NCBI GenBank assembly: GCA_044346845.1
Contig: JBIIYK010000003.1
Location: 1 to 38,854, forward strand
DNA: 38,854 bases
DNA from: Minisyncoccia bacterium
GTDB taxonomy: Bacteria; Patescibacteriota; Minisyncoccia; Phycocordibacterales; GWA1-40-21
Reading direction: 5' to 3'
Part shown: positions 12,628-38,854 of the stretch, in pieces
Numbering within the stretch: the stretch's first letter is position 1
Layout: each line of letters begins with the position of its first letter
Notes under the pieces: model-generated
The model's input: the letters and a program-made list of their open reading frames with translations, nothing else
Databases searched by the model: none
Told to the model about the DNA's origin: nothing
Made by a program: the position numbers and the translations under genes

Positions 12628-15600
12628 CTACCACGCCCACCAAGGACGGTCTGGTACGTACTGAGGTAATGGTGTGAGATCGCGTAGTGGTGTCATGTCA
12701 GGCTGAGGTGTTGTTCTATAGGATGTTGGTGTGGGATCAGGCGGCGGCGGATTATTTGGTATTAATTGAATTGGATGTTGGTCATAATAGGCAGGATTAG
12801 TTTTATATAATTCTCCAGCCTCCTCCCAGGTCATCAGTGGTGTAGACGGAGGCGGTGGTGGTAGCTGATCTAGATCATCAGGATCAGCAACAGGAGGTGC
12901 TTCTCTATAATCAAAAGCAGCAGTGTCAGCATCACCATCTTCAACTATCGGCTTAGGGATTTCTTGTGCCGGGACTGGTGGTGGTGTAACAAGACCAGTA
13001 GTAGAAACCTTAACAGTCACAGTGTAGTTCCTTTTATTTCCATTCATACCAGTGACGGTATATTTAACTGGTGAATTAAAGTTCTGGGCTACGCCAGTAG
13101 CTGGGCTAACAGACTTTGAGTCTGCGCTGATAGTGACATCAGGAGCAATCGAGGTAAGATCAATTGGATCTGATAGCGTAACTATAATTTGACCGGAGTT
13201 CTGATTAATTGAAACTGAGGAACCTAGACCAGACACGGTTGGGAAACTAAAACCGGTAATCCTGGCTGATAAATCAGCACACTCACCAGGTTCACTGACT
13301 TCTTTGAGTGCTCCAAGTTGCTTAAGTGGGACTCCGGCGAGGGGATTATTAGTTACTGTATTAAGTGGTAAAGTACCATTACAGATATTCCTTGTCTCAA
13401 GAGCCCAAGCATCACCTGTACCTAAAAGTGTACTACCCGTCCTTTTAAGAGGGTCGTAATCATACGGTGAAGCTACTCTTAATTTCGAGATGGCTGAGCT
13501 TTTTACTATAAGCCACCCTGTACCCTCAGTATTAGGAATAGTTGGGGCACTTCCTGGAGCACGATAGACTGGGCAACTCTCTAGGGTTATGACCTTATAC
13601 GCTAGGTTATTAGAAGTAGAATCCTTTTTACAATCATAAATACCTGTCACCTGACCACCAAAAGGAATATTTGTTATATCTTCAACGGCGCCAGTCCCAG
13701 AACCAGGTTGACCAGGGATTGGTGCATCTGGGTTTGTAAGACCAGAATCAGGCTGGCCAGTGCCTGGCTGCTGACCTGAGTTTGGGAAACCAGAACCAGG
13801 CTGACCAGAACCAGGTTGACCAGAACCAGGCTGACCAGAACCGGTAGCACATGGATCATAGTACCCTCCACTAGGCTGGTTTGCGAAACCATTTGGTTGA
13901 CTACCAAAAGATCCACTTACACCCGCCCCAAAGCCACCAGACCAACCAGTACTAGAATTATACCCCAGACCGCCAGTTGCTCCCACAGAAAATCCATTAC
14001 CAGAATTACCACCAGGATTACACTGACTACCTTGACCGTTACCAAAAGGACTGCCGCCGCCCGATGAACCACTGCCGTCAGGACTGCCGCCGCCCGATGA
14101 ACCTACGCTAGGAAAAGGGCTACTACCAGAACCAGAACCTGGACTAGCACCCCCGCCAAGGCCACTTGTATCTTCTTGAGTATCTTCTTCTGCATCTTCT
14201 TTTCCATCTTTCCCATCCTCATCACCAAAAACCGCTACGGCACAATTTGTCGTTCCAGTTAAAGTACCAGACTTAACAGTTAGATTGGCCTCTTTTGCGC
14301 CAACGGAAGAATAAGTTTTAGTAAGAGTTGACTTTGAACCAGAAAGCCCCTCACCTGACCATTTATATTTATAACTTCCATTTCCACCAGAAGCTTTTGC
14401 TTTCCATGTCACCTTTTCCCCAGTTGAGACAAAGGATGGCTTAGCTTCACAAGTAATAGCTAGATCAGTAGTGGAAGCAGTGGTATCGGTGGTTGTGGCA
14501 ATTACAGTTACAACATAAGACTGGGTGGATCCATTATTAGCACTAACGGTGTAAGAAACGGGATTAGTGAAATTTTGGACTACGCCACTAGCTGGACTAA
14601 CAGACGCTCCAGTAATGACAATAATAGGAATCAAACTGGTAGTAGAGGTGTTAAGAGGAACCCTAACTTCAATGGTGTGTGCTGTTTCGTCGATAACACC
14701 ACTAGCTACTGGATTAGAAAAACCAAAAGAAGTAATCGCCTTATCTGATACAGAGGCATTGGTAACAGTTACAACATAATCCTTAGTAGTACCATCAATT
14801 GCGGTCACCGTATAAGTAACGGGGTTGGTAAAATTTTGGGCCACACCAGTGACTGGACTAACAGACGCTCCTGTTCCCAAAATACTTGGGATTAAAGAGG
14901 TGACATTAGTACCATAGGGGACAACTACAGATATAGCTCCAGAATTTTCATCAATAACGCCAACGGCTGGTGGGGTTACAAAACTAAAATTTGTAATAAC
15001 CTTAACAGCTGAATCTACAACTGAGCTAGAACTTATTCTAGCGCTACAATCAGCTGTTGCTACCATAGAACCAGAAGTTACTCTGAGATAGACAGTTTTC
15101 ACTCCAGGAATTGAGTATTCTCTGGACACTGTCCTGGAACTACCTGAAACATCTCCCGCCCATTCATATCTGTAGCTACCAGTACCTCCATCTGCTTCTG
15201 CCTCCCAAATAACAGTGGAATTTATAGTGGTAGTGGCTGGAGTAGCCTCACAAGAAACCTCTAAATCTCCATCATCGGTAGATCCAAAATTAATCCAAAC
15301 CGAGTCAGTAACTGTCCCCAAAGGACCAGTACAAGAGATACCATAATTACCAGAAGCGTTCACAAAGACCGACTGTGAACCAGAAAGAGGTTTTGAACCA
15401 GAAGTACTTTGACAAGAGGTTACGTTAGCAGAGGTCCAAGTAACAGTCACATTACGAGCTGAATTAACGTTTAGCTGACCACTCTGGCCATTAATTTTTA
15501 AATCAACAAAAGGAGAGGTTCCAAGAGTAGGAGTGTTGCAGTTAAACAGATTTCGAGCTGCTTGTGCTCTGTTTGTTGGAATAACCGCAATACTAATCAA

Positions 15601-36184: not shown

Positions 36185-36354
36185 TAGAAATTATCTACAT
36201 CATTGTATTCACTGAAATCATCAGTGAACCCATCCTCAATAATAGAAGGGTCTATAACCCCACCATCTTCACTGGGGGAATCTTCATCAGAGTCCTTACC
36301 CACTTTTTTCTTTTCTATAATTTCTTCACTTTCGCTGTTTTTTTTCTTGGCCAT
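36184..36354 (-). CDS. Small acidic protein, 56 aa (absent from ORF track)
   Basis: Manual translation MAKKKNSESEEIIEKKKVGKDSDEDSPSEDGGVIDPSIIEDGFTDDFSEYNDVDNF. ATG start, and the stop coincides with the terminator. Confidence 0.7.
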   Translation of the reverse strand: MAKKKNSESEEIIEKKKVGKDSDEDSPSEDGGVIDPSIIEDGFTDDFSEYNDVDNF

Positions 36355-36476
36355 ATGCTTATTTTTTTCTTATAAATTTTCCGTTCGTCACGGAGCTTTT
36401 TATGATTTTTATATTAATAGCAGGGTTTAAAAATGTTTGCAAGGGGTTAAAAACTATTGGCTGTGGAAAACTCTTC

Positions 36477-36607
36477 GCCAAAGCTAGGTAATGCTTTTTC
36501 TTTGCACGATAATAATTTTGTCGTCACAAAATTATTTCTCTACTCCCTCAGTTTTTTGCTAAAAACTTCAGTCCGTAAGGCACGAAAAAGCATTACCTAG
36601 CTTCGGC
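36477..36607. mobile_element. MITE-like element with 24-bp terminal inverted repeats
   Basis: GCCAAAGCTAGGTAATGCTTTTTC / GAAAAAGCATTACCTAGCTTCGGC (23/24 match), two internal hairpins, no transposase. Confidence 0.6.
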
Positions 36608-37079
36608 TTGCTCTATAACTAGCAAAAAAAGTGAGACCAACAGCAATGGCATCATATTCATCGTCGTATTTTATCGGTCTTTTTATTTCAATTAATCTCT
36701 TCACCATTTCTGTTACTTGATTCTTATCGCTCTTGCCGTAACCAGTCACGGCCACCTTAATCTGAAGAGGGGAGAATTCTACAAGTTTTAGATTATTTTT
36801 GGCGGCTTCATATAACATTACTCCTCTAGCTTCGGACACTTTCATAGCGGTCTTGGCATTAGTTTTAAAAAACAAAGTTTCAATGGTCATGGCATCTGGC
36901 TTATATTTTTTAATCAAAGCGCTAATTCCTTCTCCAATAATTTTCAACCTTTCTTCGTGAGGAATTTTAGGGTCAGTTTTTAGACAGTCTGAAAATAGCA
37001 AAATTTCTTTGCCTGTTGTCTTTTCTACTATAGCAATACCCAGTCTCTCGTAACCAGGATCAATGGCAATAATACGCAT
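36597..37079 (-). CDS. ruvC: Holliday junction resolvase RuvC
   Basis: IAIDPGYERLG, IETLFF, EARGV, IKVAVTGYGKSDKNQV, DDEYDAIAVGL. Confidence 0.97.
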   Translation of the reverse strand: MRIIAIDPGYERLGIAIVEKTTGKEILLFSDCLKTDPKIPHEERLKIIGEGISALIKKYKPDAMTIETLFFKTNAKTAMKVSEARGVMLYEAAKNNLKLVEFSPLQIKVAVTGYGKSDKNQVTEMVKRLIEIKRPIKYDDEYDAIAVGLTFFASYRASRS

Positions 37080-37116
37080 GTATACAGTATACAGTATTGA
37101 GTATGGAGTATGAAGT
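37080..37116. repeat. Heptamer array GTATnnA x5
   Basis: GTATACA GTATACA GTATTGA GTATGGA GTATGAA. Confidence 0.9.
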
Positions 37117-37117
37117 C

Positions 37118-37480
37118 CTAGGGCCGGTCGACGGCAGACTTAATTAAACCAGAAATGAGTCTTGAATTTTTATCAAACATTTGCTTACTAGTATTAAACT
37201 CAACGAGGGTTACATAGTTTAGATCCAAAGCAATTCTTAATTGGCTCTCCGCTTCATATAACGAGCCTTTAGATATGGCATAGAATTGAAGTTTATCTTT
37301 TCTTGAGTTCCTACCAAAACCTTCAGCAATATTTGATGAAATAGAAACAGCGGACCTTTTAATTTGAGATGTTAAACCAAATTTTTCATCGTCCGGGAAG
37401 TTCTTTGTAAGTTTATAAATATATAGTAATAACTTATGACCTTCCTGCCAAGCAATTAAATCTGTAAAACTTTTTATCAA
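37118..37480 (-). CDS. Four-helix-bundle protein (23S rRNA IVS protein / Avd-like family)
   Basis: SFTDLIAWQ, FPDDEKFGLTSQIKRSAVSISSNIAEGFGR, ISKGSLYE. Only a TTG start is available. Confidence 0.92.
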   Translation of the reverse strand: MIKSFTDLIAWQEGHKLLLYIYKLTKNFPDDEKFGLTSQIKRSAVSISSNIAEGFGRNSRKDKLQFYAISKGSLYEAESQLRIALDLNYVTLVEFNTSKQMFDKNSRLISGLIKSAVDRP

Positions 37481-37489
37481 TTTGTATTT

Positions 37490-37524
37490 TTTATACTAAA
37501 TACTCAATACCTATACTGAATACA
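37490..37524. repeat. Heptamer array TnnATAC x5 (reverse complement of the 37080 array)
   Basis: TTTATAC TAAATAC TCAATAC CTATAC TGAATAC. Confidence 0.9.
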
Positions 37525-37528
37525 CTCT

Positions 37529-38056
37529 TTACTCCGCATTTGTATAAACTTCCTGCACCTCATCATTATCTTCTAGTTCTTCAATAATAGCTTCAAGTTT
37601 TGAACCGTCTTCTTCAGAGATGGGGACAGTCATGTTTGGTACCCAGCCCTCTTCCATATTCTTTGTAAAAGCCCAAGAAGCACTACCAGGAGCCGCCAGG
37701 GCAGAACCATTTCCTGATAAAATATGTTTTACTTCACCCGCCGCTTTATTACGATTATCTGTTAAGACGTCAATAATAATTGCTACTCCACCCGGGCCAT
37801 AAGCTTCATAAGTAATAGCTTCCATCTCTGTTGCATTATCATTTTTCTTTAAAGCTCGTTCAATGTTTTCATTTGGCACACTGGCTTCATGAGCTCTTCT
37901 CACCGCTGCCACTACATTGGCCGCGTTTCTATCACCATTAGCTTTTTTTATTTCCATACCAATAAGTTTAGCCATCTTGGTGTAGATTTTACTTTTTTTA
38001 CCATCAGAGAGGGCTTTCTTAACTTTAATTTTTGACCATTTGTTATGTCCAGACAT
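37529..38056 (-). CDS. yebC: YebC/PmpR family protein (shortened)
   Basis: MSGHNKWSKIK, YEAYGPGGVAIII, TDNRNK, LEDNDEVQEVYTN. Confidence 0.95.
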   Translation of the reverse strand: MSGHNKWSKIKVKKALSDGKKSKIYTKMAKLIGMEIKKANGDRNAANVVAAVRRAHEASVPNENIERALKKNDNATEMEAITYEAYGPGGVAIIIDVLTDNRNKAAGEVKHILSGNGSALAAPGSASWAFTKNMEEGWVPNMTVPISEEDGSKLEAIIEELEDNDEVQEVYTNAE

Positions 38057-38069
38057 ATTATTTATATTA

Positions 38070-38854
38070 TTATAATAATTTATTCTTATTTTTTAAATTC
38101 AAATGTTTTTTAGCTCTATCAGTAATTATTCTTCCGCGGGTAGTTCTTTCAATAAAGCCAAGTTGTAAAAGATATGGCTCGTAAACATCCTCAATGGTAG
38201 CCATCTCTTCAGACAGGGCCGCTGCTAGGGTATTGAGACCTACAGGGCCACCGTTAAACTTTTCTTCAATAACTGTCAGTAAGGCTCTATCAGCGGCATT
38301 AAGCCCCTCGTCATCAATACCAAGTAAATTTAAGGCTTCCACAACTATTTCTTTCGATAGCTTACTTTCTCGAACCTGAGCCAAATCACGACTCCTTTTC
38401 AAGAGATAGTTGGCGGTTCTTGGTGTAAAACGGCTCCTCTTAGCGATTTCTTGTTTGGCTTCATCCGCTATTTCTACTTCAAGCAATTTAGCGGAGCGAT
38501 TTATAATTTGTCCTATTTCGTCATTAGTATAAAATTCCAATTTAAAAACTCCTCCTGAAAAACGAGAACGAAGCGGGGCAGAAAGTAAGGCAATACGTGT
38601 GGTAGCGGCAATTAAAGTAAAAGGTGGAAGATCAAGTTGGATTGTCCTAGCCGATGGACCCTTACCGATGATGATATCCAGTGAACCACTTTCCATAGCA
38701 GGGTAGAGGACTTCTTCAATAGTTTTATTTAAGCGGTGGATTTCATCAATAAATAAAATATCACCAGGAGAAAGATTTGTTAAAATAGAAGCCAGATCTC
38801 CAACTTTTTCTATGGCCGGGCCAGAGGTGGCTTTGAGTTGAGATCTTGTTTCTT
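38070..38854 (-). CDS. ruvB: Holliday junction helicase RuvB (5' end beyond window)
   Basis: Frame is open to the window edge: [68 protein letters not shown]. Confidence 0.98.

Follow-up and report, generated by a model that had tools for sequence, protein, structure and literature searches.

The systems closest to the element described here are the intervening sequences (IVSs) of 23S rRNA genes. According to the portions of PMC4990558 drawn on here, the helix-45 IVS of Coxiella burnetii carries an S23p ORF preceded by three to four tandem GACAGAT heptamers, the number of heptamers differs among strains, and both heptamers and ORF lie within a 28-bp stem that is cut by RNase III. The authors of that study regard the S23p ORF as decaying and probably untranslated, and the same portions of the paper describe a pentameric ring of a PF05635 protein, citing Lin et al. 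2006. Insertion sequences in the 16S and 23S rRNA genes of CPR bacteria encode 23S_rRNA_IVP, and the available sections of that preprint describe them at rRNA sites only, with neither heptamer arrays nor operon junctions (bioRxiv 10.1101/2024.02.27.582315). Heptamers have been reported in intergenic regions as well. Among the periodic repeats of prokaryotic intergenic regions, the SPADE survey found tandem heptamers to be the most abundant (bioRxiv 10.1101/309039), and paired heptanucleotide elements occur in Geobacter metallireducens (PMC2700814); in the parts of both sources used here, the function of the repeats is unexplained and no link to a four-helix-bundle gene is stated. Our literature search, the supplementary data of the Geobacter and CPR studies excepted, found no paper on PF05635 with inverted heptamer arrays outside rRNA.

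We conclude that the window, by which we mean the whole stretch of DNA analysed (38,854 nucleotides), contains a real acquired IVS-type four-helix-bundle (4HB) cassette at an operon junction outside rRNA, in a packaging that, judging from the loci compared, appears to be common to the family in many bacteria. The window belongs to a genome of 591,824 bases that is 90% complete (G000; other G and L numbers denote compared genomes and loci). At its right end, ruvB, yebC and ruvC follow one another in this order on the minus strand, all co-directional, with the cassette between the last two. The 3' part of ruvB (38070-38852; Pfam RuvB_N, AAA_lid_4 and RuvB_C) extends past the window end, yebC (37529-38056; Pfam TACO1_YebC_N and Transcrip_reg) encodes 175 aa and stops at 37529-37531, and ruvC (36597-37079; Pfam RuvC, E = 4.6e-40) starts with an ATG at 37079-37077. 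In transcript sense, and again on the minus strand, the cassette consists of a 5' arm of five GTATnnA units (37490-37523), the 4HB gene (37118-37480; 120 aa, TTG start) and a 3' arm of five TnnATAC units (37080-37114) that directly adjoins the ruvC ATG. The 5' arm ends 9 nt ahead of the 4HB start codon; it has stop codons in all three frames just past yebC, and the 3' arm has none in any sense frame.

An earlier note on this DNA had described a four-helix-bundle ORF between inverted heptamer arrays that fill the yebC-ruvC junction, with one array of five units adjoining the ruvC ATG and the other, also of five, ending 5 nt from the yebC stop. Sequence and repeat searches bear this out in full, one unit of the array next to yebC being a 6-mer. 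Read on the plus strand, the units at 37080-37114 are GTAT followed by ACA, ACA, TGA, GGA and GAA, and the 6-mer is the fourth unit of the inverted array. In Tandem Repeats Finder output, rows of period 7 appear at 37080-37097, 37093-37116 and 37493-37523, and the arms pair with each other in an inverted-repeat search (I1, 21 nt at 86%; I3, 13 nt at 92%). A regular expression for at least three GTAT/ATAC cores spaced 6-8 nt apart matched twice in the 591,824 bases, both times at the cassette arms. A chance origin of the arrays was ruled out, as there are two in 592 kb and both flank the sole PF05635 gene. Whole-genome Tandem Repeats Finder output gave no second inverted heptamer pair in G000 and no GTAT-type unit in any other period-7 row, and the four period-7 rows viewed in context, on contigs C5, C22, C52 and C53, had no inverted partner.

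Some features of the window lie apart from the cassette. YebC is short, 175 aa here and in every relative examined (matches span residues 1-175), and the Pfam model of its second and third domains finds its best stretch in the first 55 of 160 positions only; the protein looks like a shortened lineage form. A tandem 15-nt repeat occupies 13789-13842 (3.6 copies, 94% matches) and 12-nt repeats lie nearby at 13999-14217, both probably within a coding region.

Like the ORF-bearing 23S IVSs of Coxiella and of Leptospira and others, as these are cited in the portions of PMC4990558 used, the window cassette encodes a PF05635 protein and no transposase. As in the Coxiella IVS described there, tandem heptamers stand just ahead of the ORF, and the ORF is enclosed by complementary ends that pair into a long stem, which in the present case is a predicted one of similar length. 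Unlike rRNA IVSs, the cassette lies in a protein-coding run, and a search of Rfam returned no family at gathering score in the whole window, nor at E <= 1 in 36300-37700. It differs from the Coxiella IVS also in that one of its arms matches a promoter for the next gene, and RNase III cleavage is here an analogy. With the CPR rRNA insertions, as presented in the available sections of the preprint, it shares the phylum-level host group and the protein domain. At one of the loci compared (L019, G052:C1, approximately 1430-1870), a 16S rRNA gene is host to a PF05635 gene flanked by inverted arrays of the CTGGAnn type; the upstream flank reads as the 16S 5' region. This location links the cassettes of operons with the elements described in CPR rRNA genes.

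PF05635 is a very large family for which, to our knowledge, no function is known. The 4HB ORF matches its model with E = 3.9e-37 and 127.1 bits, against a gathering cut-off of 33.8, over positions 2-105 of 106. It is the only PF05635 gene in G000 and the only ORF within the cassette, which contains no catalytic domain. The protein also matches PDB 2GSC (E = 1.1e-20) and 2RLD, each of which was deposited with 5 chains, and by these matches it is predicted to form a pentameric four-helix-bundle ring. Nine residues are invariant in an alignment of 30 cassette proteins (Q39, R42, N50, E53, G54, R57, F66, S73 and E76 in window numbering). The earlier note had assigned the protein to the rRNA-IVS family and considered it related to Avd, the accessory protein of diversity-generating retroelements (DGRs). 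Family membership was confirmed, and the relatedness to Avd shows as a match to bAvd (PF22296) below threshold only (E = 1.3e-6, 29.3 bits against a cut-off of 40). The window protein resembles Avd in its fold family, and a homology between 2GSC and 4DWL is stated in the part of PMC10053308 seen here. It is unlike a DGR accessory in that no reverse transcriptase (PF00078) was detected in the 90%-complete G000 and no template/variable repeat pair is present. An ortholog in a second genome of the genus (G011) is 88% identical, and its start codon is at the same place, GTG in G011 and TTG in G000. Between the two genes dN/dS is 0.07 and pS is 0.58, so the protein is under purifying selection, unlike the Coxiella ORF that is regarded as decaying in the portions of PMC4990558 used.

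Is the cassette an insertion? We sought ruvC loci in 36 relatives and obtained 30, and in 24 of these yebC is directly upstream of ruvC on the same strand. The gap between the two genes is -1 to 30 nt at nine of the 24 junctions, the tightest within the genus being 5 nt (G013); the empty alleles that the earlier note had proposed to look for are thus present. The PF05635 cassette occupies two junctions (G000 and G011), gene-less inverted heptamer hairpins of other heptamer types occupy three (G008, G020 and G039), and another short repeat is found at eight, namely a GC-rich hairpin element at seven (also in the 771-nt gap of G006) and, in G012, a copy of a hairpin repeat of about 110 nt. The remaining two junctions, G015 (61 nt) and G018 (676 nt), fall outside these classes. 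The idea of a compact cassette with no transposase inside, occupying a junction that is normally tight, is therefore supported, and comparison with the empty sites showed no visible target-site duplication.

The yebC-ruvC junction acts as a hot spot where small inserts of several kinds are found. The GC-rich hairpin element is 80-190 nt long in the seven genus relatives (L032, L034, L038, L039, L040, L042 and L050) and has at its end a TGTTATAAT-type box, 6 nt ahead of the ruvC ATG. One DNA contig of a related strain from another lake metagenome (run X2) has the GC-hairpin allele directly after the yebC stop (37528). In the window itself, a copy of the structured hairpin repeat of about 110 nt is located just downstream of ruvC (36485-36600) and is extended by a 24-bp outer inverted repeat. 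Seven further copies occur in G000 at 88-93% identity (C1, C7 with two, C13, C24, and C53 with two); the repeat has no Rfam match, and its depth in lake metagenomes is very high, about 770 versus 40. In another relative, a solo GTAT-type array, unaccompanied by an inverted one, separates a TyrRS-like gene from ruvC (L043, G016:C2, 1990-2040); the upstream ORF ends at a TAG within the array, and PF05635 was not detected in that genome.

An alternative to acquisition is that the 4HB gene is a vertically inherited, domesticated small gene, that the repeats are slippage-prone spacers, and that nothing at this junction was ever mobile. Each unit of the G000 arrays has its homologue in G011, both genomes having five units per arm with a 6-mer as the second, which is what vertical descent would give, and the purifying selection on the gene is in keeping with it. 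The distribution of the cassette points the other way. Within the genus it is present at two of 14 junctions, in species that are not sisters; in a tree of YebC and RuvC, G000 is sister to G008 (99/99 support) and G011 is in another clade. The flanking genes of G000 and G011 are synonymously saturated (pS 0.75 for yebC and 0.80 for ruvC), and since the pS of the 4HB gene is below that of its flanks, the cassette is younger than the flanks or was exchanged between lineages, a comparison that rests on 119 codons and on flanks that are saturated. Patchy and multi-copy occurrence of the family and the presence of related cassettes at many differing junctions also speak against strict inheritance. 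We therefore disfavour this alternative and consider it very improbable, and a history of vertical descent with several losses could nevertheless be substituted for acquisition, which counts, as does the small number of codons, against our preferred explanation.

Of 61 relatives, 27 carry PF05635, and so do 141 of the 301 genomes sampled across the phylum; a single genome may have as many as 14 copies (the tally of 141 includes an unpublished genome, G214, of which the other results are independent). Loci from the relatives and the phylum yielded 64 distinct cassette ORFs, and with two left out for an N in the flank, 62 were analysed. For each, the 170 nt upstream were aligned to the reverse complement of the 170 nt downstream, with a threshold score of at least 25. 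This score was reached by 46 of the 62 cassettes, versus 8 of 260 control ORFs whose flanks are clear of cassettes and 13 of 180 whose flanks touch one. A wider scan of Bacteroidota, Planctomycetota, Acidobacteriota, Proteobacteria, Firmicutes and other phyla, with one genome per species, gave 80 loci, and 57 of the 73 that were analysable reached the same score. A strict criterion, at least three units of one exact 4-mer core on both sides, had retained 24 of 62 cassettes and 9 of 477 controls; since a chain of exact cores is interrupted wherever a unit has 6 or 8 nt or a degenerate core, the alignment score was used in its place.

Inverted 7-mer arrays, for which the earlier note had proposed to test, thus surround most other family members, with types that differ by cassette (GTAT, GTAG, TAGCT, AAGTT, TAGG, GGGnnnn and others). 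The two arms of any one cassette are always of the same type, and the type tracks the protein clade across differing sites and genomes; therefore, gene and arms move as one unit. Both the family-wide architecture and the mobility as a unit are well supported. An arm typically has three to six units, most often four. Among the 46 cassettes whose arms are clear, both neighbouring genes are on the same strand as the cassette in 42 of 45 cases. Relative to the upstream stop, the start of the 5' arm falls between -21 and +12 nt in 40 of 44 cassettes, and the arm often includes that stop codon; relative to the downstream start, the end of the 3' arm falls between -12 and +15 nt in 31 of 42. Stop codons in three frames are found in 18 of 46 5' arms versus 5 of 46 3' arms. 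Although the heptamers are unrelated, the arms share a polarity: in the inward direction they are rich in G and poor in C, as seen in 38 of 43 informative cassettes and, in the wider scan, 54 of 55. A Shine-Dalgarno role was rejected as the cause of the G-richness of the 5' arm, because G000 shows no Shine-Dalgarno enrichment and the TTG start has no such word ahead of it. Five cassettes of differing heptamer type (L002, L003, L005, L007 and L014) are located directly upstream of homologous genes, the products of which start MRFQ.PQFIEIEDKIFGPLT; the position before this conserved small gene is a recurrent insertion site.

How ruvC tolerates an insertion flush with its start codon is a question that the 3' arm itself may answer. 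The arm contains a promoter-like site (37086-37114, minus strand) in which TTCATA is followed by 17 nt, TATACT, 6 nt and the ruvC ATG, a match at 9 of 12 positions, and the TATACT box is formed by the last two units of the arm. Throughout G000, the spacing between -10-like hexamers and start codons peaks sharply at 6 nt, with 53 of 405 long ORFs as against 3-25 for other spacers, and Shine-Dalgarno-like 4-mers before starts are not enriched, a pattern that suggests leaderless mRNAs to be widespread in this genome. A TATAAT or TATACT box lies 6-7 nt before the ruvC ATG at 13 of 14 loci of the genus versus 1 of 16 outside it, and the 13 include all three heptamer-occupied junctions of the genus, where array units form the box. 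It is thus probable that ruvC keeps its own expression by way of a -10 box that the arm supplies. As caveats that count against this explanation, the promoter matches only 9 of 12 positions and other heptamer types are unlike -10 boxes. The arm promoter would nonetheless be the best current explanation for the tolerance of ruvC toward the cassette, and it would need no RNA looping.

The earlier note had proposed neutralisation at the RNA level, by looping out or excision of the cassette from the message, and had estimated a stem of about 28 bp that reaches the ruvC AUG. The prediction gives slightly more than this. When the minus-strand RNA from 37545 to 37060 is folded, the arms pair over 30 bp, made up of blocks of 6, 19 and 5 bp, and the outermost pairs include the A and U of the ruvC AUG. 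The minimum free energy is -108.1 kcal/mol versus -94.7 (sd 5.8) for shuffled sequences (z = -2.29; 0 of 100 shuffles as stable). The RNAfold stem of the G011 ortholog also has 30 pairs, in another register (z = -2.04), and a gene for RNase III is present in G000. To this extent the proposal holds. A sense-RNA stem under selection would predict arm mismatches that favour G-U over A-C, and no such excess was seen (38 versus 34 in the 46 cassettes; 40 versus 54 in the 57), the mismatches being mostly transversions (102 and 133, respectively). Mirrored order of the units was assessed by permuting units with the arrays kept contiguous, and permutation barely lowers the summed arm-to-arm score (877 observed versus 821, sd 18); the excess is driven by three near-perfect cassettes, and for the window cassette 38 of 200 permutations attain the observed score. 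Two other permutation tests had given a strong mirrored-order signal that was rejected as biased (aligned-window selection; broken contiguity). No compensatory change was found between G000 and G011, the variable dinucleotides of which differ on both arms. No covariation, which the earlier note had suggested looking for, supports a defined stem, and RNA-level action is plausible while lacking its expected evolutionary signature.

Transcript data from this region are sparse. Two metatranscriptome runs each gave a single contig of 151 nt at a depth of 2 (37371-37521 and 37391-37541), the second of which bridges the 5' arm into yebC, and both may reflect DNA carry-over. A further metatranscriptome piece is 92 nt long with 3 differences, and four sequencing runs, with sparse RNA coverage, contained no joint that skips the cassette. 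What is conserved is one heptamer family in inverted orientation, which by itself ensures a slippery, imperfect stem without proving that the stem is selected. The DNA-level promoter route seems to fit ruvC expression better than neutralisation of the RNA does.

The same stem invites another interpretation, in which the 4HB ring recognises heptamers in the mRNA that encodes it and opens or stabilises a stem that hides the AUG, thereby tuning the translation of ruvC and of the 4HB gene itself. The pairing of the A and U of the AUG would suit such a switch, as would the short distance between the 5' arm and the 4HB start and the conservation of the protein. Against it, related cassettes precede unrelated genes and the design is hence not specific to ruvC, ruvC has a leaderless-type -10 box of its own in the arm, and covariation backs no defined stem. 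We consider a switch of this kind quite improbable.

Heptamer arrays also occur with no gene between them. In G008, the sister of G000, the triple GTAGAT/GTATAT-type unit has 119 matches with at most two mismatches, versus 9 for the reversed control. Most of these copies form gene-less inverted pairs with a spacing of 40-100 nt, which enclose terminator-like GC hairpins at the ends of genes, and the sole strong 4HB cassette of that genome (L006) has the same heptamer type. Arrays of the G008 type also surround two ordinary genes at L219 (G008:C6) and L221 (G008:C14), a DprA-like ORF (290 aa) and a HAD-type ORF (192 aa). The arms may thus be able to enclose cargo of other kinds, or each gene may have a separate half-element on either side. 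Thirteen genomes have at least three matches to the pattern GTAKAY x3 at no more than one mismatch, and in seven of them (G016, G022, G027, G029, G036, G037 and G058; completeness 94-100%) no PF05635 gene was found at E <= 0.001. A dependence of the arrays on the gene is therefore not supported. The heptamer arrays are plausibly the target of the 4HB protein, and this reading is weakened by the occurrence of arrays where a PF05635 gene goes undetected.

The gene-less copies recall miniature inverted-repeat transposable elements (MITEs) and REP/BIME sequences, which likewise are short inverted-repeat hairpins at junctions, multiply in one genome, as in G008, and persist without a coding partner. 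They differ from these in that the arms are tandem 7-nt arrays and not a unique terminal inverted repeat, that the cassette has no transposase or RAYT-type gene, and that a target-site duplication is not visible. The heptamer arrays in general also resemble the SPADE and Geobacter repeats, as far as the sections used describe these, in being arrays of four to five heptamers that often form inverted pairs at gene boundaries; the likeness to the Geobacter arrays is one of description.

It is possible that the arms act as DNA, either as terminal arrays of binding sites or as single-strand hairpins that drive insertion, copying or recombination. The arms would be read by a host factor or by the 4HB pentamer acting both in cis and in trans. 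Any pairing of the RNA would then be a by-product, and cassettes and gene-less hairpins would be related as autonomous and non-autonomous mobile elements. Such a role would accommodate the missing wobble signature and the weak mirrored order, and also the inward G-rich, C-poor polarity, which a plain stem does not predict. The abundance of mostly gene-less arrays in G008, of the same type as its one cassette, fits as well, and so do the five chains of the two solved relatives beside arms of typically three to six units. Set against this are the array genomes that lack a resident PF05635 gene, the converse case of G000, which has the gene and yet no gene-less copies, and a cassette in which we see neither a catalytic domain nor a duplicated target. 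The co-orientation with the host genes, moreover, points to dependence on host transcription. On balance we regard a DNA role of the arms as unlikely, though as the likeliest of the alternatives to our preferred explanation.

The explanation we prefer, and hold to be somewhat more probable than its negation, is that an rRNA-IVS-type cassette was acquired at this junction and that its arms make the insertion non-polar, with a promoter and possibly an RNA stem. A promoter-less PF05635 gene with two inverted five-unit GTATnnA arrays would have been inserted where the yebC stop meets the ruvC start, gene and arms, by comparison with other loci, travelling as a single unit. The host would tolerate the insertion through its arms. 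The 5' arm, with the stops seen in its sequence, shuts all three reading frames right after yebC, and the TATACT box of the 3' arm, 6 nt before the ATG and thus in leaderless geometry, would let ruvC retain its expression. Where RNA reads through the cassette, the two arms may form an imperfect stem of about 30 bp in which the ruvC AUG takes part, and by analogy with the Coxiella 23S IVS this stem could be a substrate from which RNase III releases the 4HB message.

A broader proposal goes beyond the window. The 4HB ring could be a sequence-specific reader of heptamers that, together with the gene-less hairpins, forms a transposase-free mobile system, the arms of which are built or kept up by repeat addition or hairpin templating. 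A process of this sort is hinted at by the G-rich-inward polarity, which is constant across unrelated heptamers. We put this forward as a speculation that is rather unlikely to be right; if true, a single mechanism would link rRNA IVSs with the cassettes at operon junctions and with the unexplained heptamer repeats that are widespread between prokaryotic genes.

The cassette described here shows insertion polymorphism at a housekeeping junction, has gene-less derivatives, and carries arms with stop codons and, in this instance, a putative promoter. For the organism, this suggests that small genomes that make no use of Shine-Dalgarno sequences may be able to absorb insertions within operons without polar effects. 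For the family, a defined cassette now ties PF05635 to tandem heptamers, and this connection may help to explain the 7-base repeats that are common in bacteria.
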